Source of the DNA: Lentisphaeria bacterium
GTDB lineage: Bacteria; Verrucomicrobiota; Lentisphaeria; Oligosphaerales; CAITYL01
NCBI GenBank assembly: GCA_041651315.1
Contig: JBAZJM010000003.1
Coordinates: 1-64,000, forward strand
Reading direction: 5' to 3'
DNA: 64,000 nt
In this document: in pieces, positions 414 through 61,866 of the stretch
Numbering within the stretch: position 1 is the first letter of the stretch
How the letters are laid out: each line of letters starts with the position of its first letter
Program-made: the position numbers and the translations under genes
The notes under the pieces: model-generated
What the model was told of the DNA's origin: nothing
The model's input: only the letters and a program-made list of their open reading frames with translations
The model's database searches: none

Positions 414-1067
414 TCAATTATAAAAACGACGAAGTGGAATTGAAATACTTCTTTTCATACACCTCTTTCTCACTGCATTATCAGAAACACCAATCATTTC
501 ACCAACTTTTCGCATTGAATATGCTTCAACCAAAGCTTTAAGTTGATCATCTGACGGCCAGTTTCCTTTAATTGCGCCTCCGGCAGGATTCGAACCTGCA
601 TCTTCAAGCTCCGCAAGCTTGTGCACTATCCGTTGTGCCACGAAGGCATAACCTCTACGATGAGTTCTTTCACGATGACAATTTGCACAGACTAAATCAC
701 ATTTTTTGATTTCATCAAGAATTTTTTTCTTACTACCCCATTTTATTAATTTTGATATATCACCATCTTTTATTTTGGGATCTCTATGATCAAAGTCCAT
801 TTGCCAAGGATTGAATACTCCACCACAATCTAGACAAGGACTCGTTTTCAAAGAATCTATTAATTCTTTGAGTTCAATCATTTTACGTTTTGCTTTATTT
901 ATATATTGATGGGGTTTTTTCTTGTAATGATCATTTACTGATTTTCGATGACATTCTCTGCATGTTGGATTCAATCCATCTTTTCGAGATTTGTTCTTAG
1001 TAAAATCTCTAGTTGGATCTTTCGGGTATTTACATCGACAACAAGTTTTAGTGTCTACGAATTCCAT
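414..1067 (-). CDS. HNH homing-endonuclease-like protein with C-terminal helix-turn-helix
   Basis: 217 aa with several CxxC/HNH-type motifs (CRCK..CRECHRK..CLDCGG..CANCHRERTH) and a C-terminal HTH (MRKVGEMIGVSDNAVRKRCMKR). The ORF reads through an embedded tRNA at 575-647. Confidence 0.55.
   Translation of the reverse strand: MEFVDTKTCCRCKYPKDPTRDFTKNKSRKDGLNPTCRECHRKSVNDHYKKKPHQYINKAKRKMIELKELIDSLKTSPCLDCGGVFNPWQMDFDHRDPKIKDGDISKLIKWGSKKKILDEIKKCDLVCANCHRERTHRRGYAFVAQRIVHKLAELEDAGSNPAGGAIKGNWPSDDQLKALVEAYSMRKVGEMIGVSDNAVRKRCMKRSISIPLRRFYN
575..647 (-). tRNA. tRNA-Arg (anticodon GCG), embedded inside the HNH ORF on the same strand
   Basis: Complete cloverleaf: acceptor GCCTTCG/CGAGGGC-type 7 bp, D GCAC/GTGC, anticodon stem CAAGC/GCTTG with loop TTGCGGA, T-arm GCAGG-TTCGAAT-CCTGC. 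Confidence 0.7.
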
Positions 1068-1092: not shown

Positions 1093-1162
1093 CGTCCTCG
1101 GAAGGAATTGAACCCTCGCAAGCTGGCTTCGAAGGCCTGCCGCCAAATCCATTGGCGAGGAC
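1093..1162 (-). tRNA. tRNA, probably Arg (anticodon TCG), reduced D-arm
   Basis: Acceptor GTCCTCG/CGAGGAC, T-arm GAGGG-TTCAATT-CCTTC, anticodon loop CTTCGAA in a stem with one A.A mismatch. The D-stem CCAA/TTGG follows the acceptor directly. Confidence 0.5.
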
Positions 1163-1510
1163 TTACGTTGTCATGACTGAAGCTACTTGATATGCTTTAA
1201 TCAGCCCATCAAGGCATTGAGACCAAAGTTCATACTTAGGCATCTCAATTTTCCATTCAACTTCATCCATGATCGCATATGAGTTCAATTTCAGGTCATC
1301 TTCATCCCAAAAGATGCTGAAGTCATCTGTGTTTAGATGACCGATGACTCGTTTTGTTACTAAAGACTCTTCATTAGCCGTGATGATGCCGTGGCAAGCA
1401 TATAAAAATATTGCTACAGCGCCACTACCGACAATCACTGCCTCGATAGTTGCCAATTCTTCAAGATTGAATCTGAAAAACGAATCTTTAGAAAATAAAT
1501 CGCTTTTCAT
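1163..1510 (-). CDS. paralog family member 1 (hypothetical, conserved C-terminal WxCL...VASV motif)
   Basis: 115-aa ORF. C-terminus EMPKYELWSQCLDGLIKAYQVASVMTT matches the four ORFs immediately upstream; start/stop overlap with the neighbour. Confidence 0.6.
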   Translation of the reverse strand: MKSDLFSKDSFFRFNLEELATIEAVIVGSGAVAIFLYACHGIITANEESLVTKRVIGHLNTDDFSIFWDEDDLKLNSYAIMDEVEWKIEMPKYELWSQCLDGLIKAYQVASVMTT

Positions 1511-1827
1511 ACCAACATGACTGAAGCGATCTCGAGTGTCTTAGTTAGTTCTTCAAGACACCTGGGCCAGAATTCATACTTCGGCATTTCAATTTCCCAA
1601 TCACGATCAGCTTCAAACATCGGCTCAATGAAAATGAATCCGTTTTCATTGAATCGACCGATATCATATCTGAATGAAGGCCAAAGTTTTGATTCATCGA
1701 AAAGAGTACATGGTGTTCCATTACTGATATGACAAAGATCTATCCTGATGAATCCATTTATCATTCTTGCTTCAACAAATAATGACTCTTCAAGATCAAA
1801 CTTGAAAAATGGATCATTATCTGTCAT
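1507..1827 (-). CDS. paralog family member 2
   Basis: 106 aa. N-terminal FFKFDLEE and C-terminal EMPKYEFWPRCLEELTKTLEIASVMLV motifs shared with its paralogs. Confidence 0.6.
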   Translation of the reverse strand: MTDNDPFFKFDLEESLFVEARMINGFIRIDLCHISNGTPCTLFDESKLWPSFRYDIGRFNENGFIFIEPMFEADRDWEIEMPKYEFWPRCLEELTKTLEIASVMLV

Positions 1828-2219
1828 GTCAATATGACTGACGCGACGATTGCTGCCCTATTCAAAGCGTCTAGACACTCAGGCCAATATTCATGCTCAA
1901 GTATAGATGTAGCTCTTTTCGACCAGTTTATCGTCGTATCTTGAACAACTACATCATCAAGTAGTATACCAATCATTATTCTATTTGGTCTATAATCTGA
2001 GTCTACACATTCAACATAGACTCGAATTTCACCGTTACCCATTAAAGAGGCGGTAACCGCATTACCTTCGTCAAGTTCAAAATGGAAGAATTGATTTCCC
2101 GTTACTTTTTTCGGTTTATTTGGTATATGACTATTTAAGTGATTCTTTATTTCTATCGTGAAAAACTTCTGAATTTTATTCAGACGTTCATTGAAAATTA
2201 TCTTCATATCCGGCAGCAT
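1824..2219 (-). CDS. paralog family member 3
   Basis: 131 aa. FFHFELDEGN and ...EYWPECLDALNRAAIVASVILT motifs. Confidence 0.6.
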   Translation of the reverse strand: MLPDMKIIFNERLNKIQKFFTIEIKNHLNSHIPNKPKKVTGNQFFHFELDEGNAVTASLMGNGEIRVYVECVDSDYRPNRIMIGILLDDVVVQDTTINWSKRATSILEHEYWPECLDALNRAAIVASVILT

Positions 2220-2258
2220 AAGTTACCTTGGATACTAAGAAAATCCGAAGATTTTCAG

Positions 2259-2723
2259 TTAGATGAACATGACCGATGCTACTTCGAATGATTTATGAAG
2301 TTGTTGCAAGCACTCGGGCCAGTGTTCGTATTTTTCAACTTCTCTACCCCAATGAGTATCTTCACCATCATCATTATCGAGTCGTCTATAATCGATGGAC
2401 GAAGAACTCATTGTCCCGATCTTGATTTTGAAAGCCTTTTCTACATTCAATTGGTGAACGAAAATACTAGCTTCAAGTCCATCAACTGTCTCAGCCATGA
2501 TTTCGATAGAATCATCGAGAGCGAAATTGAAGAAAACAACGGCTCTCTGAAGATTAAACCCGGTCATCCCACGGGGATTGAAAACGCCAACCCCGATTGT
2601 TTCCGTGACTTTAAACCCGATAGCCCTATCAGCTTTATCAGCTGAAATGACCGTCAACTCAGTTTTAATCGGCATTCTTCCGATAAATTCAGGGCTTGAG
2701 AACGAAAATATCTTATTTGACAT
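2259..2723 (-). CDS. paralog family member 4
   Basis: 154 aa. FFNFALDD and ...EHWPECLQQLHKSFEVASVMFI motifs. Confidence 0.6.
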   Translation of the reverse strand: MSNKIFSFSSPEFIGRMPIKTELTVISADKADRAIGFKVTETIGVGVFNPRGMTGFNLQRAVVFFNFALDDSIEIMAETVDGLEASIFVHQLNVEKAFKIKIGTMSSSSIDYRRLDNDDGEDTHWGREVEKYEHWPECLQQLHKSFEVASVMFI

Positions 2724-2731
2724 TTAATATT

Positions 2732-3076
2732 CTACGAAAAGAGAACTGAAGCGACTTCGTATGCCTTAGTCATTTGCTTAAGGCATTCTGGCCAACTTTC
2801 ATACTTTCTCATCACATTTTCCCAATTATGAGTATCATCGGGGGAGAAGTCGACGCCCTTTTCGTCTAATTTACCGATAAGTACTCCCTTTGAGGGAGGT
2901 GAAATATTAGGGAAAGCATAAACACGCGCTCCGTCGTGTCTTGTCATCTTAACCGTGATTTCAACATTATTCTCAAGGAAAAAGCTGAAAAACTGATAAC
3001 CACCATCAGGCAATTCGAGAAATTTCACATCCCAAGTGCAATTGAAGAAAGCTGATATATTGGGATCAGTTGCCAT
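2732..3076 (-). CDS. paralog family member 5
   Basis: 114 aa. C-terminus RKYESWPECLKQMTKAYEVASVLFS. Ends with TAG. Confidence 0.6.
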   Translation of the reverse strand: MATDPNISAFFNCTWDVKFLELPDGGYQFFSFFLENNVEITVKMTRHDGARVYAFPNISPPSKGVLIGKLDEKGVDFSPDDTHNWENVMRKYESWPECLKQMTKAYEVASVLFS

Positions 3077-3093
3077 GATATTATTTTACAATT

Positions 3094-3168
3094 GGCGTCT
3101 CCAGTGGGACTTGAACCCGACATTTACGGCTTGAAAGGCCGTAATCCTAGCCTTTAGAAGATGGAGAC
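3094..3168 (-). tRNA. tRNA-Glu (anticodon TTC), CCA encoded
   Basis: Acceptor GTCTCCA/TGGAGAC, anticodon stem ACGGC/GCCGT with loop CTTTCAA, T-loop TTCAAGT, 3' GCCA. Confidence 0.7.
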
Positions 3169-3658: not shown

Positions 3659-3728
3659 TACCCCTGACAGGAATCGAACCTGTGCACACGAGTTTAGAAG
3701 GCTCAGTGCCGTATCCATCGGCAGGGGC
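3659..3728 (-). tRNA. tRNA-Arg (anticodon TCT) with C31.A39 mismatch
   Basis: Acceptor GCCCCTG/CAGGGGT, anticodon stem TGAGC/ACTCG with loop CTTCTAA, T-arm ACAGG-TTCGATT-CCTGT. Confidence 0.55.
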
Positions 3729-3927: not shown

Positions 3928-4557
3928 ATGGACAATAATTCGAAAAAACAGAAAGCAAGAAAACTAAGAATCGATGAACGTCTTTCTTTAGAAGAAATAT
4001 CAAAAAGAGTTGGGATTGCTAAATCAACTGCATCTCTTTGGTTAAGGGACATGCCTTTAACCAAAGAAGAAAGAAGCATTAGAAATAAAATTGGTGCTCA
4101 ATTCAGTAGAATTCATCTCAGAAAAGACAGAGGAGAAGAATCAAAATATTACTTAATGGCTTCTAAAACAAGGGCAGCGTCGAATCATAAAGGACGTATA
4201 TCAGAATCAGCAGTAGCATTTCGATTATCTTTGATCGGACTTACTTTTTATATGTCCCCATTTGATGGGGATCATGTCGATTTTATTGTTGAAAATTCGA
4301 ATGGAAAACATTTGAAAATTCAAGTTCGATCTACTAGACGTACACATGATACCATGCCAATGGTTAGAATCAAACGTTATTGTGGAAATCGTAAAATGCG
4401 AAAATATGAACGTAATGACTGTGATATATTGGTTGCATACGATTTAAAAACAGACGTGGCTTATGTTTTCACATATAATGAATTAAATAATCGTACGAGT
4501 CATATAACGATGTGTCCAGAAGCTGCAGAAAAATGGGATAAACTAGAAATCGCATGA
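3928..4557 (+). CDS. HTH DNA-binding protein, possible nuclease-like C-terminal domain
   Basis: 209 aa. The N-terminus (LSLEEISKRVGIAKSTASLWLRD) is a helix-turn-helix. The C-terminal D..E.K-like segment (DHVDFIVENSNGKHLKIQ) suggests a PD-(D/E)xK-type fold, which is inference only. Confidence 0.4.
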   Translation: MDNNSKKQKARKLRIDERLSLEEISKRVGIAKSTASLWLRDMPLTKEERSIRNKIGAQFSRIHLRKDRGEESKYYLMASKTRAASNHKGRISESAVAFRLSLIGLTFYMSPFDGDHVDFIVENSNGKHLKIQVRSTRRTHDTMPMVRIKRYCGNRKMRKYERNDCDILVAYDLKTDVAYVFTYNELNNRTSHITMCPEAAEKWDKLEIA

Positions 4558-5540: not shown

Positions 5541-5612
5541 TGGTGGAGCTGCCGGGTATCGAACCCGGGCTTCGAGCTTGCAGGGCTCGAATCTAGTCCT
5601 CTAGACAACCCC
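5541..5612 (-). tRNA. tRNA, probably Ala (anticodon TGC; loop CCTGCAA with C33)
   Basis: Acceptor GGGGTTG/CAGCTCC with GU pairs, anticodon stem CGAGC/GCTCG, T-arm CCCGG-TTCGATA-CCCGG-type, 3' A-CCA. Confidence 0.5.
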
Positions 5613-19034: not shown

Positions 19035-19382
19035 TTAGTTTACAGCGGACGCAGCGGTCTTTTTATTACCGAAAATACTATCCCACCCATCACGATAAGC
19101 TTGGCTATTTACCATTGAAGGACCGTGAGAGTCATGATCTTTTTGATCCGGAGTCCTTCCATCGTAAATACGGGTCATTTCAAAAACTGGTGAACTACCA
19201 ACTTGTTTTAACTCAACAAGTTCCTTTCCGAGAAGACTCTCACCTTCTCCGATTCGTTTCAGTAATCCACACTGAGGACCGTGATTAGGATCATTCCTGA
19301 TTGCTGCAGTAGAGCCATCAGGTAGACTCGGACCTAGAACAACGAGTTCCTTTTTCGGACGATTATCATCGTTATTTGCCAT
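19035..19382 (-). CDS. hypothetical protein
   Basis: 115-aa ORF. Confidence 0.35.
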   Translation of the reverse strand: MANNDDNRPKKELVVLGPSLPDGSTAAIRNDPNHGPQCGLLKRIGEGESLLGKELVELKQVGSSPVFEMTRIYDGRTPDQKDHDSHGPSMVNSQAYRDGWDSIFGNKKTAASAVN

Positions 19383-19421
19383 GGGCGTATATAAGAGACC
19401 AGTAACCTGATCTACAGTACA

Positions 19422-19826
19422 CTATCCGTAAGCCACTAAACGTAGTGGATCTTCTGGCAATTTAGAACCTAGAAATCTTTGTGCTGAAGGAAATACTGAA
19501 TTAGATGAAACAGACTGCTTCAATAATCTCGGTATGCGCGAAGCGTTCTTATCTTTTACTAAAGAAATGCCGTTAACCATTATCCTCAGCCAATCAGCAT
19601 GAATTTTTCGTCTTCTAACAGCTGATTCTGCAGCGGAACGAATGGACTCTAGATCCCCATTATCTAAAAACCCGACAATTTCTTCAGGGGATATCCTCAT
19701 TGAGGAGCCTTCAGCCAGAAAATGCCCGAGAAGGTATTTATTTTCTCGAGCTAATAAGACCACCTCAGGCCAGTTCTTATATTCAGTTTCAACTCTTTCG
19801 ATGAACTCCTGAGGATATGTTATCAT
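19422..19826 (-). CDS. hypothetical protein
   Basis: 134-aa ORF. Confidence 0.4.
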   Translation of the reverse strand: MITYPQEFIERVETEYKNWPEVVLLARENKYLLGHFLAEGSSMRISPEEIVGFLDNGDLESIRSAAESAVRRRKIHADWLRIMVNGISLVKDKNASRIPRLLKQSVSSNSVFPSAQRFLGSKLPEDPLRLVAYG

Positions 19827-20069
19827 ATTTAATTACCCCTCATACCGAGATCAAGTTAGATTTACTAACTTAAACATTGATTTTTAGCATGTCATCATGA
19901 TAAAGACATGTAACTACTCTAAGTTTTTTCTCAAGTATGAGATCTATATTTAAAAACGAAGTCATATTTCTTCGAAATTTAGACAACATAGATCCTAACT
20001 CAAACAAACCCTCATGATCCCACATAGAAATTTCTGTGGTCAGATGAGTTGTCCATTGATGATAATGGT

Positions 20070-43730: not shown

Positions 43731-43964
43731 ATGAAACCAGCCACAATAAGTATTAAAAATCTTCGTCAACATCGATATCCAATAATTGATGCTGCAGTGG
43801 CTAAATTTCGAGCAGAAATTCAAGCAGCAGATGATCAAAGAGTTTGGGATGCCTTAGATAAAATTGGGTATGAATGCAGTATCTGTAAAAAGGACATACG
43901 AAGAGACGATGTTCTATCCGATAACTGTCCTGAATGCACAATTCGATCTGTACTTGAAACCTGA
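43731..43964 (+). CDS. small zinc-ribbon protein
   Basis: CSICKK...CPEC in a 77-aa ORF. Confidence 0.35.
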   Translation: MKPATISIKNLRQHRYPIIDAAVAKFRAEIQAADDQRVWDALDKIGYECSICKKDIRRDDVLSDNCPECTIRSVLET

Positions 43965-52763: not shown

Positions 52764-55700
52764 TCAATACCACAGACTTAAGTTCGATATTAAGATCGCG
52801 TGGTTGTGTATCATGGACATCGGGAGATAAGGGTAGAAATCTGCTACATATATTAAACCAGCACCAGGCCCAACAAATGACCCGGTGGAACCAGAATAAC
52901 CAGTTTCAGCTCCTATCACCCTAACTGTTCCATTATACTGAAAACCAGCTGGGATAGCTGTATCAATGTTTAAAGTAACATTGAACCTACCGTAATAACC
53001 ACCGGGATAAATAGTACTATTTCCAAGAAGAACTCCGGTAGTTTTAGATCCCCATGGATCAACATCTCTCATATTTAATTGATATGAGTCAGGACTAGAA
53101 TGATTCAAACCGATATAATTGTTAGTTACATCGAACAAACCACAGGCATCGTTCGATTTACGACTAAGTAAACAAACTCCAACTGAATAATCACCACTAC
53201 TTGCACTATTCCCACAATAAATAACGGTGCAATCTTCAACCTTAACGGGTCTGGTGAGATAGGAATCGATATAGATACCGTTATACTGACAACTATCTAT
53301 ATTGACACTTCTGATAGTGATGTCGTCACCATATGCCTCAATACCGAAAAGTAAGCCATTTTCTGAGAGAGATCCTGCAAAACGAGACCCTATGGAGCTA
53401 TTTTCAATAATAACTCCGCCAGTATTACCTTCATAAGCTGCATAGTAGGCAGCAGTTCTTGGCATACTAATGCCGCTGACAAAAGAACCTGGGGATGCAT
53501 ATAATTCAATATTAAGATCACTTATGTGACCTTTACTGATTAGATAATTTCTAGCTTCGATTAAAACAATTGCTCCAGATACCCATTGATCTATATCATT
53601 TATATTATGATAATAAACTCTTTCCATGTTGAAAGAATTTAACTCTTGGAACATTTCCCTTATGCAAATTCTGCTACCTGGTGGAGCAGATCCACCGCCA
53701 CCAGGAAACAGACGAGCATAAATACCATCAACATCTAGACTACCATATGAACAGAAGAAGAAATCACCATAGTTTGCCCAAGCTATCGGATGGACAACTT
53801 CAATATTTTTTACTTCAATATATTTCCCAGCTAAACAGAAAAGACCGCCCTTTCCTTCACCAGGACCACCATAGAGTCCACCAGTGTAGTTAGTAAACCA
53901 AGGAACCATGTTGGTTGTAGATGCTCCGTTTGTACTAAACCATGCATCAATTACAACATCTTCAACAGTTAGTTTACCTCCATAGACTGAATCAACTCCA
54001 ATCCCACCTATGGCAATAGCAGGAACAGCTACGGCATCGTGAGTGTTCCAGAATCCAACATAGAAACGTTTAATATCGAAGTTGTCGATCTTCATTGCAG
54101 GGTAACTAGAACCCTGAGTGTAATAATCTAGACCATTCCAACCTGTAGGTACGACATGAATGGCTACTGGTGATCCAGTACCATAATTGCTAGTATTCAG
54201 TCTACAATCATAGATGTGAACATTCTTAATTTCAGCACCGTAGTTAGCATAAGCATCACTACTCGGATTAAAAGATATTATGCCACATTGTGACTGTAGA
54301 TTACCAGATACATCGACATCAACTCTAGAAGTGTCGAAGTTACAATTTAAAAATTCGATGAGTTCGACATTGGCCGTACCCATGCTAGTATAATCATAAA
54401 TAGCTGTTACTGCCCCGTTAACTACTGAACTGAGATAGCATTCTTTAAATGAAATGATATTCGTGCTTTGATAGTGTGAATCATTAGTCCATATATCAAA
54501 TCCGATAGTTTGGAACCATGGACCAGGATATGCAATCGGCATACTCTGACCAATGAAACTGGTTTTATATGCACGAAATTCAACAATATTTGCACAGTAA
54601 ATGGAGCCAGCATTTATCCAGCAACCATTCATTTCTAAGATGCCGCCTTCTACCCGTATGAGATTCAGTGAAGCACCGATGTCATTGGTAATTGCAATAC
54701 CAGACATCTTCGTATACCCGTTGTTAGGGAGTGAGAGAGATTCATAATACCATTGATGGCTGATTAAAACAGGCGAGGCATTGGGATTCTCGTAGTACCC
54801 ATCAATAACTAGATCTGAAAGAAATGAGAAGTCAACAGTATAACTAGTTACATAATAGCCACTCTTAACTCTAATTGTTGCTACAGTCGCCCCTACAGCT
54901 TCTAAATAAGCTTGAGCTTTATGAAAAGCATCGGGTCCATTAAAGTCACCAAAAGTAGTAACACCATCACCAAGAACAATTTCATGCCGAGCATTTAATG
55001 TCCGCATGATGCTGTACGGACCAGCTTCTACGACGTTCCATACATAACGATCAGCTAGTGTCGGAGAACCATCAGTATGATTAGGATCGGCCGTAAGCGG
55101 TATATAACCCAGACCAGTACCACCACCAGTCGTACTATTTAAAGTATGTACATCAGCAAATTTTAAACCATCAGCTGAACTTAAAGGTCCTGGAGTTGTA
55201 TCCCAAGATACGAGAGCACCGCCGTTGTAAAGAGAAATATATCCAGGGGTATTCGGACCAAGAGATGCATATGGACCGGTATCCCTAGCTATTGAAGCAA
55301 TTAGATTACTATAAGAATAAGTACCGGTGCCACCAAGAAAATCAAATTGAGAATAAGTTGAATAACCAGTTGGATCTACGAAAAAATCCATGTACGAAAC
55401 TGGATATAATGCATTTCCTCCATACCCAGTACCTTCAAAACGGTTACTAACTATCGCAGAAACCATTTCATAAGGATACTTAAGGAATTGCTTAAATAAT
55501 GCACTTGATTGATCAATTACGCCTTGTAAATACTCTCTCGCAATAGACCCATCAGGACCAACAGTTACTGGTTTACCAACATCAAATAACCCACGAGATG
55601 GTGATACATAAATATTCCCACGAGATGTGTTAACAAATTTCAGATTCAATGAGGCTGTGGATTGATTTGAACCTGCAGATTTATCGAGAAATCTTTGAAC

Positions 55701-57176
55701 TTTTGAATCTCCGACAGGATCAATATCACCGAATTCCATGACCTCAGGAAAGATCATTTCAGCAGGATAGCTGTTTATATTGAAAACCTGTTGAAAAGGG
55801 ATAGTGACTAATTCTTCTTCTGAAGAATCGGAAGCCCCATAATAACCAGCATTTAGTCCAAGTTTGGCTAAAGTAGCAGAGGATCCATTAATTTGTAAGT
55901 ATGAACCAGTCCCTCTATACTGAGAAGTGATTCTTATTTCATCAGGACCATAAGGTTCCGCGATGAACGGTCCACGATACATACCAGGACGGAATCCAAT
56001 TTTCGATAGAACTCCACTGCTTAAGGAATCGTCAGCTAATTCTATCGATGAATGAAGTCCATCAGTATTGTGACTAGATAAACGAATTAGATTCTGATAG
56101 AAATTACTATAAGCCGAGGCTATAGGAGAACCGATAGCTGCGTTTATTGTAGTAACTACATCACCATTAGTAACTTCAGTCCCATTAAATATGACCCTAA
56201 TTTGAGGTCCACCATCAATTCTAATTATGAATGATTCACCTGAAGCAAAACTGAATGGACCAGAAATTGTTCCAATTATAAAAACATGCCCATCAGAAAG
56301 CCCGAGAGCACCTGCATAAAGAGCATTTATTGATTGAACAACCCAATCACGATTGTTTGGGTTCGGGCCAAAAAATCCGAAAGAAACGGAAAAATTAACG
56401 CCGTCAACATTTAGATCGACTTGATCAGATCCATCTAAAGTGGTGAATGAACTATTGAAAGTAACAACAGAAGCTCTGGTCGGGAGCTTCGCATAAGATC
56501 TAATACGATATCCGTAGTAACTATCATGCGTTAATCGTCCATGAACCGGAGTTCCACCAAGAATGGACGCGGCCCATGTAACTGATCCGGTATCATTACT
56601 GACCATTCGATAGTCAGTAACATCAGTAACGAGATGACGACCATCTTGTGTCGCGAGACGTACAAGGCCACCAAGACCGTCGGGAGTACGAGTAAGAATA
56701 CCTCTCGTCGGGCCCTTTAAACCAGTATATGTTCCTGCAACTAAACCGAGTTTAGCAAGAACACCGGGAGAGACATCAGATAAATTGATAGAAGAAGAAG
56801 CGCCTACCGTTATAGTTTGAAGGGAAAGAACACCTTCTTTATTGAGTGCAACATCAAAACCAAGAGTCGAGTTTATTCTTGAAGCTATTCTGGAAACTGT
56901 CGTATCAGTCCCAATGAAAGTTACTAAAACACTCGGAGCACCATCAATCGCTATTCTTATTGCATCACCAGCTAAGATAGGATATGGACTCTGAATACTA
57001 CTAGTAACATATGCCTGAACATCTTCTTCAGCTCCACCCGGAACGCCAGTAACAGCAATAGTATCGATTGAAGGGGTCGGAATGATCGAATCATTATAAC
57101 CCGGGTAAAGATCCGCAGTACCAAATGTGAATTTGGTGTTGACCGACTTAATCTGTTCTTTTCTTGGCTGAACCAT
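52764..57176 (-). CDS. giant structural protein (tail fiber / beta-helix-like, 1470 aa)
   Basis: 1470-aa ORF rich in Gly/Ser/Thr/Asn/Tyr repeats, typical of fiber or pectate-lyase-fold proteins. The call rests on composition and size alone. Confidence 0.5.
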   Translation of the reverse strand: MVQPRKEQIKSVNTKFTFGTADLYPGYNDSIIPTPSIDTIAVTGVPGGAEEDVQAYVTSSIQSPYPILAGDAIRIAIDGAPSVLVTFIGTDTTVSRIASRINSTLGFDVALNKEGVLSLQTITVGASSSINLSDVSPGVLAKLGLVAGTYTGLKGPTRGILTRTPDGLGGLVRLATQDGRHLVTDVTDYRMVSNDTGSVTWAASILGGTPVHGRLTHDSYYGYRIRSYAKLPTRASVVTFNSSFTTLDGSDQVDLNVDGVNFSVSFGFFGPNPNNRDWVVQSINALYAGALGLSDGHVFIIGTISGPFSFASGESFIIRIDGGPQIRVIFNGTEVTNGDVVTTINAAIGSPIASAYSNFYQNLIRLSSHNTDGLHSSIELADDSLSSGVLSKIGFRPGMYRGPFIAEPYGPDEIRITSQYRGTGSYLQINGSSATLAKLGLNAGYYGASDSSEEELVTIPFQQVFNINSYPAEMIFPEVMEFGDIDPVGDSKVQRFLDKSAGSNQSTASLNLKFVNTSRGNIYVSPSRGLFDVGKPVTVGPDGSIAREYLQGVIDQSSALFKQFLKYPYEMVSAIVSNRFEGTGYGGNALYPVSYMDFFVDPTGYSTYSQFDFLGGTGTYSYSNLIASIARDTGPYASLGPNTPGYISLYNGGALVSWDTTPGPLSSADGLKFADVHTLNSTTGGGTGLGYIPLTADPNHTDGSPTLADRYVWNVVEAGPYSIMRTLNARHEIVLGDGVTTFGDFNGPDAFHKAQAYLEAVGATVATIRVKSGYYVTSYTVDFSFLSDLVIDGYYENPNASPVLISHQWYYESLSLPNNGYTKMSGIAITNDIGASLNLIRVEGGILEMNGCWINAGSIYCANIVEFRAYKTSFIGQSMPIAYPGPWFQTIGFDIWTNDSHYQSTNIISFKECYLSSVVNGAVTAIYDYTSMGTANVELIEFLNCNFDTSRVDVDVSGNLQSQCGIISFNPSSDAYANYGAEIKNVHIYDCRLNTSNYGTGSPVAIHVVPTGWNGLDYYTQGSSYPAMKIDNFDIKRFYVGFWNTHDAVAVPAIAIGGIGVDSVYGGKLTVEDVVIDAWFSTNGASTTNMVPWFTNYTGGLYGGPGEGKGGLFCLAGKYIEVKNIEVVHPIAWANYGDFFFCSYGSLDVDGIYARLFPGGGGSAPPGSRICIREMFQELNSFNMERVYYHNINDIDQWVSGAIVLIEARNYLISKGHISDLNIELYASPGSFVSGISMPRTAAYYAAYEGNTGGVIIENSSIGSRFAGSLSENGLLFGIEAYGDDITIRSVNIDSCQYNGIYIDSYLTRPVKVEDCTVIYCGNSASSGDYSVGVCLLSRKSNDACGLFDVTNNYIGLNHSSPDSYQLNMRDVDPWGSKTTGVLLGNSTIYPGGYYGRFNVTLNIDTAIPAGFQYNGTVRVIGAETGYSGSTGSFVGPGAGLIYVADFYPYLPMSMIHNHAILISNLSLWY

Positions 57177-57225: not shown

Positions 57226-60200
57226 TTAGAGCAAAACATACCACACTTCAAGTGTGTCAGTAGTCAAAAGTGAGGGGTTTGAACCACTTACTATGTAAGT
57301 AAGATCTTTACCCGAAACACCACCAACTACATAATCAACGCCGTAGGTTAGCTTAACACCGCGAGCATAGGCTTGAACGGTAGTTGGATCTAATGGACGC
57401 GCTGATAGATTAAAAACAGTCTGTCCATCTGAAACGATTGGCAGGATTTCCTGCTTCACAGAAGTTTGATCAACATCACTTGATCCAAAATAGATTGGAT
57501 CATCATAAATATTGTTGACAAACAAAGGACGATCGTTTGGTTTTATAGAAGTATCGACAGATCCGCGCTTCTTCTCAAGTGGTCGACCCCAAATTCTATA
57601 ACGATCGACAGCGGTATAACCTTCATTCGTACCATTCGCCGAATGTTGAATATCTGTGTCTCGGAAATAAGCGGGAAGACCCTGTGTAACTATTACTAAT
57701 TGAAGTTCAGATCCGGAATGAACTTCAATGGAATTCACATTTTCTGGTTGCGATCTGACAAGGTAAGCCGTAGCAGCAAGAACTGAACCCGTTTCTGAAT
57801 TCGGTCTAGCCTTAGGCATACGAGACGCAATAACACCACCTGGCCATGGAGGAGTGACAGACCAAGCGGCACCACCACGTGCAGTCTTGAATTTTGTTAC
57901 GTCAGAGAAGCTTTGAGTACCATCAACTCGAACAATTGATTCTCCACCAGCACCATTGGTCCCGCTTGCTTGACCGCAAACAAATTCAACACCTTCCCAA
58001 GTAGAAGAACCAGCGGGTGTTGGATTTGTTGGTGCTTGATAAGGTGAGAATACTGTCGTTCCAAGTGAGATAGCACCAACATTGCTAGTACTTCTCGTTT
58101 GATATAACGTCTTTCCAATGAAATCCTTCTCTCGGAACCAAATTCCGAGAGGAAGTTGTGAAACACAACCCATGAACTCCGGGTTTACGTCACGGTCAAA
58201 AACTTCAGAGATAGCACCTCTCTTAATGGGAGGTCGAGCTGCCAATGAAGAAGGTAGAACTGGGAATTTAACAGTAGACCAGTCTTCGAATCCGACCCGA
58301 TTCAAAGAGAATCGCCGATTCAAATCAACAAGAGTGCCCGTATAATCCGGAGCAGAATTCGGATTTTGTATTGGAGTCAAAAGAGGGATCGGATTAGATC
58401 CTGAAAGTCTACCACTACCAAGAGATGTTATGAAGTTGACTGAAGCAAGAACTTCATATCCTGTCTTGTTCGGAAAAGCGAGAGTTTCAACAGGACCGAG
58501 AGGATTGGCCGAAATACTCTGAGCTTCAGAGATCGTGAGCGGGCCTAATCTCTGAACGTCATCAGAATAAGCTGACTGACTTCCGAATACGTCACCTTGA
58601 TATGGCTGACGACTATAATAAACAGTCAGTTCATTATTCGTTGCATTCAAAGAGAGAGGCGCGGGAGCTACAATACCGATCTTTTGATCTGAAGTGCCAG
58701 TAAAGGAATTGGGCAAAATCGGTAAAGATCCACCACCGGAAGTTCGTGCTACCAAAATACGACCATTGGTTTGTAAGAAACCACGATCGAATCCGAATAA
58801 GGTGCACTCAATGAGAAACTCTGAATTATCCCATGTAGTGCCTGCCGGAGCCTTTGAGAAATCAATCACATCCTTATTCAGGATGAATGTCACATCCCCG
58901 TTAGTATCGACGTCCAATAAGAATGTTGGACCATCGAAATCATCATGCATCAAATTCGTATCGGTACCAGCTCCACCAACGAAAACACGATCAGAGTTGA
59001 ATGGTGAAGAAGCTGGTTGTACTGGATATGGAGGACTACCCGATGTATTTCGTTTGTAAATCCCGGTAATACGAGCTGGACCATAGAATGGCGGGAACTG
59101 AATTCCCTTAAACGGACCACCATCAACACTTCTTAATTTCGTATTCGTGTATTTTCTACCGAAAACTGATGGAAGAGCTCCAGTTCCGTATGTTTCACCA
59201 ACAATCGGAGTTACAATGTAATAACCAGATCCACTCGGGTAACTAACAAGGTTTCTATTCCAATCAGAGGAATCGGATGCACCGAAAGGTCCTTCCTTCG
59301 ACATAAGAAGGAAGTTTATTCCTGAAGGGAATCTAGTAGTAGTGATAGGAACGATTGGGCAATGATGAAGGCCTGGTCTCGGTAAATACTCAATCGGTAT
59401 TTCAACGTATCGAGATAAAGCTCCCGTATAGAATAAGGTAAGAGGGTCAATCGTTGAATGAACCACGGACAAACCATCTTGAGATAACTGAGGCATCGAC
59501 CCTTGGAAGGTCGAAGCATTTGTCCAATTCAATTGACTACCATCTCTAACAAGAAGAGACGGAACTAGAATGTTCCTATATGGTGCTGCATAGACAGTTT
59601 TAGCACCAGGATCGATCATAACTTCTGAAGTTCTGGCAATCTCTCTATCATTCCCCGTTTGAACAAGCGGTGAGAATGGTAAATAAGTCGGAATCATTCG
59701 ACTACGATCAGAAAGACCAGATCGAAGAATCACCTTCGATGAATTGGTTGGATCACCACGATAGTGAACTTGATGTACATAGTCAGCTTTGTGAGAAAGA
59801 CCACGTCCTGCACCATAGACCACCGCAAAAGAGATGTGCATCGTAGTCTTCGATGCAAGATCTGCAGTTGCCGGAGAAGGAATGGCGTCAGTAAACTCTT
59901 GGAAGAGAGAATTGACAGCACCACTATTCAATGTGATCTCAAGATTCCCATTTGAATCAAGAGAGACTACTAAACCTTGTCCGTGCTTTAGGATTCGATA
60001 TCCAGAGATAGTTACAGAAGCCGGATTTGATGCAGATGGAGAGGTTGTAAATGGTTGATTACTTGGAACCCCACCATTTGGATCAGTTGTCATTCCTTCA
60101 AAATGAACTAAGACAGCATCTGGATCTTCTGACGGAAGAATGAATCGAACCTGATCAGCATCAGTTGCCGGTAACCCAGCTTGGAAAGTAGAAAGTCCAA

Positions 60201-61866
60201 TGGTGATTTTATCACCATTAAACCACCAAGGAACTGTTCCATTGAGACGGAAACCAGATGGATGAGATGGAGGCGTAGCCGTCCATTTAGCATCAATAGT
60301 GTATGGATTAACAGCAATCTGAATAGAAGAATTCAGGGCTGTCGCATTTGTCGGAACTTGAACAGGAACATCAAATCTCTCGGTTATGATTGCGTCAGAC
60401 CAAGCTCTTCTATTCCCATTCGGTCCATCAAGTCTCGATAAACCACCAACAAACACTGAACCATCAGTTATTCTATCGCCATAAAGCGTGACAACGCCAG
60501 CGGAGTTAGTCGATCCATAACGTTTCCAAGCAGTTCTAAGGTTGCCACGTAAAAGTTCTGTCAGATTCGTTTTAAGGATCGAATTATAATCGAATTTACT
60601 TGCCACTGAGTGGCGCATGTCCATGACATCAGTTTTAGTAATCTGATCGGCAAAAAGCCCATCTGGACGCACAGTATATGGAATAAGTTCAACACCAGCT
60701 GAGTGAGAACGGATGACAGTCAAGAGTTGACCTCTATCCATCGTCACTACGAATGCGTTTGGTGCAGTTTGAGTTACATTGCTAACTCGAATAATTTCAT
60801 CATCGATCTTAAAATATGCTTCACCGAATGAAGTGATTGTTGATAAAACTGTCCCGGTTACACTTGTTAATGTGAATTGAACATCAGTATTAGTAATATC
60901 ATTCGGGAGAATGATATCATTTATATAAGTCGTTGCACCAGAGCGTGTAGTAGCAGCGCTATTACGATTGAAAGCTCCAGCTAAATTACCGATATCTGAA
61001 AAACCGGAACCATTTCTGCGAAATACTGAAAGTAACGGAATAGCATAAACATACCCGTCAACTGTTCCGAGAACAGTTGGATCTCCATTACCGGCTCTCC
61101 AAAGACCGGGATCACCGAGTGCTTCTCTCATATTCTGGAAAGATAAAGCACTAGGTGCGGATAAAGCTCCTTGAGCAAATACTAAAGTTGGATCAAATCC
61201 TTCCGGATATTGAGCTAGATTGATGTCCGAGACAACTCGAATTCTGTACTGAATTTGAACTCGTTTAGTCGTTTCGTAATTAACATTCGGATCAATTAAT
61301 TCATCCGGTAAATACGAAAATCCACTTTCAACGTTTCCGAATCTATAAAGAAAACCGCGCTGTGGTTTACCAGGAGCTATTCCGGATGCTGGGTCAACAT
61401 CGATTCTCTGAAGCCAGACTTCAAGAAAAGCAAACTCTGCACGGTTTCCACCCGTTGATGTACTAGGCGGATTGAATTCAATCTTATTCCAAGAATCGGA
61501 ATTATCCGGAGATAGAGGAGGTTGGCCAGTTCTTGTTCCACTTACAGGAATCGCCCACCCATTCACAACAGCCCACTGCAAATCTCGAAGTTCTCCAGTA
61601 TATTTTTTACCGAAAAACAGGAAATTTGAATAAGTGGGGTCAGTCGTATAATCAGACATCGGGTTAGACTCATTCATGAGCCAACCTGACGATAATTGAG
61701 AACGAACTACCTCTGCCTTCGCATTAAGCTCCATGAGCGAGATAAGGTTCAGTTCTGAATCGAGAGGAGGTCTATTCCCTTGGAATACGACAACCGCAAA
61801 CTGACGATCTGTCGCAGAGACCACCCTTGAAACAATAGGGCCTAGAGGCTTGGAAGGCATCAGCAA
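57226..61866 (-). CDS. giant structural protein (1546 aa)
   Basis: 1546-aa ORF upstream of the fiber-like gene with similar composition. Confidence 0.5.
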   Translation of the reverse strand: MLMPSKPLGPIVSRVVSATDRQFAVVVFQGNRPPLDSELNLISLMELNAKAEVVRSQLSSGWLMNESNPMSDYTTDPTYSNFLFFGKKYTGELRDLQWAVVNGWAIPVSGTRTGQPPLSPDNSDSWNKIEFNPPSTSTGGNRAEFAFLEVWLQRIDVDPASGIAPGKPQRGFLYRFGNVESGFSYLPDELIDPNVNYETTKRVQIQYRIRVVSDINLAQYPEGFDPTLVFAQGALSAPSALSFQNMREALGDPGLWRAGNGDPTVLGTVDGYVYAIPLLSVFRRNGSGFSDIGNLAGAFNRNSAATTRSGATTYINDIILPNDITNTDVQFTLTSVTGTVLSTITSFGEAYFKIDDEIIRVSNVTQTAPNAFVVTMDRGQLLTVIRSHSAGVELIPYTVRPDGLFADQITKTDVMDMRHSVASKFDYNSILKTNLTELLRGNLRTAWKRYGSTNSAGVVTLYGDRITDGSVFVGGLSRLDGPNGNRRAWSDAIITERFDVPVQVPTNATALNSSIQIAVNPYTIDAKWTATPPSHPSGFRLNGTVPWWFNGDKITIGLSTFQAGLPATDADQVRFILPSEDPDAVLVHFEGMTTDPNGGVPSNQPFTTSPSASNPASVTISGYRILKHGQGLVVSLDSNGNLEITLNSGAVNSLFQEFTDAIPSPATADLASKTTMHISFAVVYGAGRGLSHKADYVHQVHYRGDPTNSSKVILRSGLSDRSRMIPTYLPFSPLVQTGNDREIARTSEVMIDPGAKTVYAAPYRNILVPSLLVRDGSQLNWTNASTFQGSMPQLSQDGLSVVHSTIDPLTLFYTGALSRYVEIPIEYLPRPGLHHCPIVPITTTRFPSGINFLLMSKEGPFGASDSSDWNRNLVSYPSGSGYYIVTPIVGETYGTGALPSVFGRKYTNTKLRSVDGGPFKGIQFPPFYGPARITGIYKRNTSGSPPYPVQPASSPFNSDRVFVGGAGTDTNLMHDDFDGPTFLLDVDTNGDVTFILNKDVIDFSKAPAGTTWDNSEFLIECTLFGFDRGFLQTNGRILVARTSGGGSLPILPNSFTGTSDQKIGIVAPAPLSLNATNNELTVYYSRQPYQGDVFGSQSAYSDDVQRLGPLTISEAQSISANPLGPVETLAFPNKTGYEVLASVNFITSLGSGRLSGSNPIPLLTPIQNPNSAPDYTGTLVDLNRRFSLNRVGFEDWSTVKFPVLPSSLAARPPIKRGAISEVFDRDVNPEFMGCVSQLPLGIWFREKDFIGKTLYQTRSTSNVGAISLGTTVFSPYQAPTNPTPAGSSTWEGVEFVCGQASGTNGAGGESIVRVDGTQSFSDVTKFKTARGGAAWSVTPPWPGGVIASRMPKARPNSETGSVLAATAYLVRSQPENVNSIEVHSGSELQLVIVTQGLPAYFRDTDIQHSANGTNEGYTAVDRYRIWGRPLEKKRGSVDTSIKPNDRPLFVNNIYDDPIYFGSSDVDQTSVKQEILPIVSDGQTVFNLSARPLDPTTVQAYARGVKLTYGVDYVVGGVSGKDLTYIVSGSNPSLLTTDTLEVWYVLL

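Follow-up and report, generated by a model that had tools for sequence, protein, structure and literature searches.

Segmental amplification of loci that serve in anti-defense, driven by the homing endonuclease SegB, has been shown in the transfer RNA (tRNA) region of phage T6 (PMC13096335). A tandem array with some likeness to the SegB loci is found in the stretch of DNA analyzed here, which comprises the first 64,000 nucleotides of contig JBAZJM010000003.1 (assembly GCA_041651315.1, deposited as Lentisphaeria bacterium) and is referred to below as the window. As in the SegB loci (PMC13096335), gene copies are arranged in tandem within a phage tRNA cluster in which homing endonucleases are encoded as well. 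The array is a cassette of five neighboring small open reading frames (ORFs) in the tRNA region of an uncultivated phage of about 157 kb. It encodes a family of small proteins that might serve as a set of binders with separate partners, and one of these proteins starts with a segment homologous to the C-terminal end of a phage capsid protein. The ORFs are lettered A to E in the order of transcription on the minus strand, with A on the side of position 3076 and E on the side of position 1163. The cassette and its boundaries are listed below with the isoelectric points (pI) of the products, the ratios of nonsynonymous to synonymous substitution rates (dN/dS, or omega), the predicted local distance difference test scores (pLDDT) of the structural models, and the supporting evidence, including hidden Markov model (HMM) searches.

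3093..3168, minus strand: tRNA-Glu(UUC) with an encoded CCA, the upstream boundary (ARAGORN; Rfam, 44.2 bits)
2732..3076, minus strand: paralog A, 114 residues, pI 4.9 (ORF; dN/dS 0.15 to 0.18; AlphaFold pLDDT 71)
2259..2723, minus strand: paralog B, 154 residues, pI 5.1, a capsid protein tail followed by the family core (dN/dS 0.09 to 0.13; AlphaFold pLDDT 62)
2544..2711, minus strand: capsid-homologous segment of B, residues ~5 to 60 (tblastn, HMM, NCBIfam, and PHROG)
1824..2219, minus strand: paralog C, 131 residues, pI 5.8, the most divergent of the five (dN/dS 0.20 to 0.21)
1507..1827, minus strand: paralog D, 106 residues, the minimal core, pI 4.35, net charge -11 (dN/dS 0.11 to 0.19)
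1163..1510, minus strand: paralog E, 115 residues, pI 4.4 (dN/dS 0.11 to 0.17)
1093..1162, minus strand: atypical tRNA-Arg(UCG)-like element, the downstream boundary (Rfam, 25.9 bits; conservation in relatives)

An earlier, sequence-only reading of the window had placed five consecutive minus-strand ORFs of 106 to 154 residues in this array, and all five are found exactly where it had placed them. They form a genuine tandem family of paralogs in the accessory (tRNA) region of a phage, as it had proposed, with significant similarity to one another and with conserved synteny in relatives. The paralogs share N- and C-terminal motifs. Both motifs are present in all five proteins, but the strings that had been given for them are only approximate for A, C, and E: A has L-E-N in place of L-[ED]-[ED], E has W-S-Q-C-L in place of the WP form, and C has W-x8 and N-R. 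Of the 86 ungapped columns in the core alignment, 24 are constant within the ortholog groups and different between them. In the shared segments, the paralogs retain only about 70% identity at the DNA level while the protein motifs are kept, so their conservation lies at the protein level. No Rfam family was matched inside ORFs A to E.

The order A-B-C-D-E is identical in five related metagenomic phage contigs (L001 to L005), each of which encodes a one-to-one ortholog of every paralog. Wherever the flanks are present in the relatives, the cassette is located between tRNA-Glu(UUC) and a tRNA-Arg or tRNA-Arg-like element. The few departures from this layout are minor. In L007 and L008, a sixth, C-like member (C') is inserted between B and C. 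The contigs L005 and L006, which come from two sequencing runs, have an A gene frameshifted by a 1-nucleotide deletion and intact B to E genes. L004 is a recombinant: one lineage type extends over A to C and most of D, and another covers the C-terminal end of D together with the whole of E. An apparent 5' truncation of E in L005 proved to be an artifact of the start site chosen by the gene caller.

Comparisons between three lineages by the Nei-Gojobori method give dN/dS values of 0.09 to 0.21 for every gene. When pooled by region, omega is 0.25 in the extensions that precede the core, 0.12 in the first β-strands, 0.16 in the supposedly variable center, and 0.12 in the C-terminal motif. The five ORFs are real protein-coding genes, and all parts of their products are under purifying selection. 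The homologs thus support the reading frames, with ratios that are far from 1. The centers of the proteins, which the sequence-only reading had described as highly diverged, are so between paralog groups (25 to 36% overall identity) but are conserved within ortholog groups (71 to 83% identity). This combination of low omega with high identity within the groups indicates that the family is old, stable, and subfunctionalized and is not rapidly diversifying.

The phyletic distribution of the family is narrow. Among 5.8 billion clustered proteins, a profile search retrieved only 21 relatives, each of them small and metagenomic. An exhaustive HMMER search of 1.84 billion representative sequences gave 11 proteins at E values of ≤0.001, which included 7 small family members, the protein P0021, which matches in its E-type N-terminal segment only, and 3 large repeat proteins. 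Scans of IMG/VR for the family yielded no match, and a scan of the JGI metagenomes added a single locus. A megablast comparison of 6 kb with the INPHARED phages showed nothing similar at the DNA level. By its polymerase, the closest sequenced phage is the 485-kb uncultured phage LR745208, with 36% identity. Judging from these searches, the family is restricted to one narrow clade of tRNA-rich phages, uncultivated and roughly 160 kb in size, and the profile searches revealed no expansion of it outside this clade.

Paralog B differs from the other members in its N-terminal part. In tblastn searches of sequenced phages, only the first ~60 residues of B find matches, and every annotated target is a major head protein. 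The matches include LR745208 (47% identity; E value of 8e-11), at a locus that is unannotated and was later identified as the capsid gene of that phage, the “major head protein” gp334 of Tunturiibacter phage Tunturi_5 (E value of 3e-6), and gp27 of Bacillus phage G (E value of 3e-4). Residues ~5 to 60 of B align with the last ~52 residues of the ~290-residue, HK97-fold capsid proteins of the phage G gp27 type. This family has a member with a solved structure (phage G gp27; PDB 6WKK), and PF25209 is the precomputed Pfam assignment for the matches. In this alignment, the segment is 52% identical to the LR745208 capsid protein in the window B and 60% identical in its ortholog P0007. The match stops exactly at the C terminus of the capsid protein, which is where the family core starts.

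Profile comparisons place the segment in the same way. B aligns with an HMM derived from 122 capsid proteins over model positions 236 to 290 of 292 (E value of 1.7e-16); this HMM also matches every B ortholog and gives no match to A, C, D, or E. The NCBIfam model of the HK97 capsid protein (NF042927) matches B at positions 226 to 277 of 280 (E value of 8.7e-4), with a score of 18 bits against a cutoff of 80, and PHROG 2522 matches with the same placement (E value of 2.8e-4). B gives no full-length match to the capsid profile, which covers ~280 to 290 residues with the N-arm, P domain, and A domain. Omega in the capsid-derived segment is 0.15 to 0.37, which shows that the segment is maintained by selection. 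By the evidence of these alignments, the N terminus of B is a fragment captured from an HK97-type capsid protein, and B is not itself a capsid protein. The N-terminal extensions of A and C have no significant match to capsid proteins or to other genes of the phage.

The window and the neighboring contig stretches that were reached contain no complete capsid gene of the phage G gp27 type. The best 120 matches in a capsid profile search are capsid proteins of huge phages only, and the family profile found no copy of the family core next to the capsid genes of related huge phages. At another site in the window, an intergenic stretch (43746 to 43865, plus strand) has a weak tblastn match to residues 101 to 140 of the LR745208 capsid protein (E value of 0.002; 37% identity over 40 residues). 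The frame translated there is broken by stop codons, and the stretch may represent a second, decayed capsid fragment or a chance match.

All five proteins are acidic (pI of 4.35 to 5.8), with net charges of -3 to -11, and none has a signal peptide that is evident by eye in its N-terminal sequence. AlphaFold2 modeling with the family alignment predicts five β-strands, a short helix, and a long C-terminal helix for A (pLDDT of 71). An independent run for B predicts the same core, preceded by a low-confidence N-terminal hairpin (pLDDT of 62). E contains the hydrophobic stretch VIVGSGAVAIFLYACHGII, which has a 19-residue Kyte-Doolittle maximum of 2.03 and is nearly invariant across the E orthologs; no other segment in the family gives a transmembrane-like Kyte-Doolittle signal. 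The segment ATIEAVIVGSGAVA (residues 20 to 35 of E) is identical in all E orthologs read, despite their overall identity of 67 to 77% to the window E, and the I-F that follows it is identical in all of these except L005. This segment recalls the GxGxxA strand-turn of dinucleotide-binding domains.

Database searches assign the family core to no described family. Scans of A to E against Pfam, PHROGs, NCBIfam, and PADLOC return nothing except the capsid tail matches in B; specifically, PADLOC yields 0 families, and the single further PHROG match has an E value of 0.097. The family profile finds nothing among PDB sequences at E values of ≤10, and Foldseek searches of BFVD and PDB give no significant match. 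In the library scans, none of the five proteins matches an enzyme or housekeeping family. The sequence-only reading, which did not take the ORFs for a known housekeeping family, is borne out on this point in every search.

The cassette is bracketed by tRNA-type elements with nucleotide precision. The spacer between the 3' end of tRNA-Glu(UUC) and the ATG codon of A is 16 nucleotides long in the window and 16 to 19 in the relatives, and this tRNA has the same position in L001, L002, L003, and L005. At the other end, the tRNA-Arg(UCG)-like element begins at the base right after the TAA stop codon of E, with a gap of 0 nucleotides. Its score against Rfam RF00005 (25.9 bits) is under the 29-bit cutoff, and it is absent from the ARAGORN calls. 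The element has a predicted cloverleaf-like fold (-29.3 kcal/mol; z score of -2.1), in which the acceptor, anticodon (UCG), and T arms can be recognized. Nearly the same element is found in L001, L002, and L004, and its D stem shows a compensatory A-T to G-C double change between the window and L004, on one side, and L001 and L002, on the other. The usual spacing between the acceptor and D stems is missing. Of the two boundaries named in the sequence-only reading, tRNA-Glu is therefore solid, at 44 bits, and the tRNA-Arg call is below threshold, though the element is conserved in four relatives with the compensatory change.

Within the cassette, the stop and start codons overlap as ATGA at the C/D and D/E junctions, and both overlaps are kept in L001 and L002. 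The overlaps had been ascribed to the array as a whole, but at the other two of the four junctions the genes are separated, by 8 nucleotides between A and B and by 39 between B and C. The stop codon of A is TAG in the window and TAA in L005. Consensus scans of the cassette for promoters and terminators perform no better than on shuffled sequence, and the scan found no terminator-like site on the coding strand within it. A 7-bp hairpin with a UUCG loop (GAAAATC-TTCG-GATTTTC), which is located right after the B stop codon in the B-C spacer (2220 to 2258, minus strand), was considered and dropped, as its conservation is partial and it shows no clear covariation.

The interpretation that we favor, tentatively, is that A to E are coexpressed accessory binder proteins that are built on one scaffold, have paralog-specific partners, and are cut from a tRNA-punctuated transcript. 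The cassette would be transcribed together with the tRNA operon. Processing by RNase P at the downstream tRNA and by RNase Z at the upstream one would then free a pentacistronic messenger RNA (mRNA) with a leader of 16 to 19 nucleotides and no trailer. The common scaffold is predicted to be a β-meander of four or five strands packed against the long, amphipathic C-terminal helix, and the conserved aromatic and hydrophobic residues of the motifs (FFxFxL, W, WPECL, and ASV) probably form its core. The residues that distinguish the paralogs (the 24 of 86 core columns) would give each of these presumably nonstructural proteins a surface for a distinct partner, of host or phage origin, during infection. 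Because such paralog-specific surfaces are set on a shared scaffold, binding of separate partners appears to be the most likely mode of action. The capsid-derived β-strands of B would bind whatever recognizes the C-terminal part of the capsid protein; candidate partners are the capsid protein itself during assembly and a host factor that senses it.

Several points weigh against this interpretation. The binder role is argued from the small size of the proteins, the lack of catalytic motifs, and the paralog-specific surfaces. The AlphaFold models are only moderate in confidence, with pLDDT values of 71 and 62, and were built on 23 to 26 sequences. Cotranscription with the tRNAs is deduced from the spacing, with the promoter and terminator signals indistinguishable from those of shuffled sequence. 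Finally, the fixed gene order, translational coupling, and uniformly low omega suit an obligate multisubunit complex equally well. It is possible, if somewhat doubtful, that A to E are the subunits of one such hetero-oligomer, for example, a ring or a stack, with the C-terminal helix and the first strand as the shared interface and with gene order and ATGA coupling setting the stoichiometry. The invariant order in all relatives, the conserved C/D and D/E overlaps in L001 and L002, and purifying selection that is uniform over all members are consistent with a complex of this kind, in which the invariant hydrophobic hairpin of E could be a buried interface. However, A is frameshifted in L005 and L006 while B to E are intact, C' is inserted in L007 and L008, and the recombinant L004 would be awkward for coevolved interfaces. 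Even the existence of the proteins might be doubted, given a location among repeated tRNA genes, the only feature in favor of spurious ORFs whose similarity reflects repeated noncoding DNA of the tRNA cluster. The chance of this is practically nil: dN/dS is far under 1 in all five ORFs, so that codon-level conservation refutes it, and motifs are kept by paralogs that are ~70% identical as DNA and contain no Rfam match.

The sequence-only reading saw in the array a diversifying anti-defense, decoy, or immunity family engaged in an arms race, possibly against tRNA-targeting host defenses. Small acidic proteins in an accessory region with many homing endonucleases would fit such a role, as would the minor variation in copy number and the pseudogene, and the amplification driven by SegB in T6 offers a route to tandem arrays in phage tRNA regions (PMC13096335). 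The capsid tail of B, which could act as a decoy for capsid-sensing defenses, slightly favors the decoy idea. The evolutionary record nevertheless makes an arms race unlikely. Omega is 0.09 to 0.21 and is not elevated in the variable center, orthology is strictly one to one, the order is stable, and the copy number is five (six in one lineage); in place of elevated dN/dS and rapid gain and loss, the sole changes are one extra copy and one frameshift. The proteins match no defense or anti-defense family in PADLOC or PHROGs and are confined to a narrow clade, unlike widely exchanged anti-defense genes, and their sole tie to tRNA biology is their position. This location is not specific evidence for anti-defense, since the same tRNA region holds a dCMP deaminase, a DUF488 protein, a radical-SAM protein, and homing endonucleases. 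A role at the capsid, in which the proteins would be assembly chaperones, decoration proteins, or packaged proteins and the tail of B would tie it to the shell by strand complementation, would account for the homology of the N terminus of B to the ~52 C-terminal residues of the capsid protein and for its purifying selection. Such a role is improbable for the family, however, as only B-type members have the tail and A, C, D, and E fail the capsid HMM, the cassette is located in a tRNA and nucleotide metabolism region and not beside structural genes, the 64-kb window has no capsid gene, and the family profile finds nothing that adjoins the capsid genes of related huge phages. A more speculative proposal, and a long shot, is that the family is a scaffold for the display of captured segments: B would present the C-terminal strands of the capsid protein of its own or a rival phage, either as a decoy that titrates a capsid-recognizing immune sensor of the host or as a strand-complementing modulator of assembly, the other paralogs would neutralize other sensors, and the tRNA-punctuated mRNA would provide for early delivery.

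Whichever partners the proteins have, they represent a real family of small proteins that, by the searches made here, is previously undescribed; apart from the capsid tail of B, none of the profile libraries searched contains a match to it, and its structural matches are weak. Large phages commonly encode small accessory proteins in lineage-specific families, so an array of this kind is in itself no surprise. What is unusual is the capture of a capsid tail by B and the nucleotide-exact bracketing by tRNA-type elements, which points to tRNA processing as a means by which phage mRNAs can be delimited. Capsid proteins act as triggers for several immune systems of bacteria. The conserved, early-region B with its capsid fragment is for this reason a concrete candidate for a role as a decoy or as a modulator of assembly. 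Purifying selection and the clean separation of orthologs from paralogs make the family well suited to structure determination and to screens for interactions.

Across the window, ARAGORN predicts 26 tRNAs, mostly in the first 12 kb and on the minus strand, and Rfam adds a few; two tRNA-like sequences, at 3659 to 3728 (minus strand; 30.5 bits) and 5544 to 5612 (minus strand; 33.2 bits), pass the Rfam gathering score and have no ARAGORN call. The encoded proteins include a family A DNA polymerase, a DnaB-like helicase and another helicase, a sigma factor, a DNA methyltransferase, HNH and PD-(D/E)XK endonucleases, a radical-SAM protein, a DUF488 protein, and a dCMP (deoxycytidine monophosphate) deaminase, annotated on the ortholog in relatives. 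This gene content indicates that the window belongs to a large phage. A tRNA with the anticodon CUA, an amber suppressor that ARAGORN labels “Pyl,” is encoded at 28660 to 28734 (minus strand). Among the 61 long minus-strand frames, 11 end in TAG, and reading this codon as sense would merge just one pair (19037 to 19832). Recoding of TAG is thus not evident in the window; it may affect genes in other parts of the genome.

Two endonuclease ORFs are found close to the cassette. The first (414 to 1067, minus strand) encodes a 217-residue HNH homing endonuclease (PHROG 2255; E value of 7.5e-33) and reads in frame through a tRNA-Arg(GCG) gene (575 to 647, minus strand; Rfam, 66.4 bits); its C-terminal tail looks helix-turn-helix-like by eye. 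This combination is present in L001 and L004 and absent from L002, L003, and L005. Between the window and L001, the synonymous divergence (dS) of the HNH ORF is 0.023, compared with 0.44 to 1.36 for the adjacent cassette genes, which suggests that the endonuclease and tRNA form a recently mobile unit. The second ORF (3928 to 4557), which lies within the tRNA cluster on the plus strand, opposite to it, encodes a PD-(D/E)XK endonuclease-like protein. It is probably another mobile insertion; at the corresponding place, L002, L003, and L005 have a different gene, which encodes 256 residues.

Farther along the window, an 886-residue ORF (25933 to 28593, minus strand) gives matches to the shoulder domain of the major vault protein (PF11978; E value of 8e-30) and to a vault repeat (PF17795), which is unusual for a phage. 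Two adjacent giant ORFs (52764 to 57176 and 57226 to 61866, minus strand; 1,470 and 1,546 residues) have no Pfam match at E values of ≤0.001 and are conserved with the same neighbors in L011 and L012.

The family was compared with several known domains and protein families, among them the acidic proteins p32, gC1qBP, and MAM33, whose hallmark is a doughnut-shaped trimer. The PH-like, EVH1, and Ran-binding domains form a closed sandwich of seven strands, whereas the family model has five, and Foldseek gives no significant match. The FFxFxL-[DE] strand, together with the two strands after it, is similar to the DYFRFxL start of the PPC domain (PF04151), and two of the three large repeat proteins from the search of representative sequences carry PPC domains. 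The scores of the family profile against such multirepeat proteins are inflated, because weak matches to the individual repeats are summed. An hhalign comparison with the PPC repeats gives a probability of 66% over only 38 columns, which correspond to the first three strands, and Pfam PPC has no match at E values of ≤1 to any of A to E. The C-terminal helical half of the family has no counterpart in PPC. Membership in the PPC family was rejected, and the likeness is regarded as a local resemblance of strands.

Compared with an HK97-fold capsid protein, B is without the other ~240 residues and continues into an unrelated domain of ~92 residues. The amplifications at the SegB loci are recent, near-identical repeats that were selected in the laboratory (PMC13096335), whereas the copies in the cassette are ancient, with 25 to 36% identity, and each of them is individually conserved.

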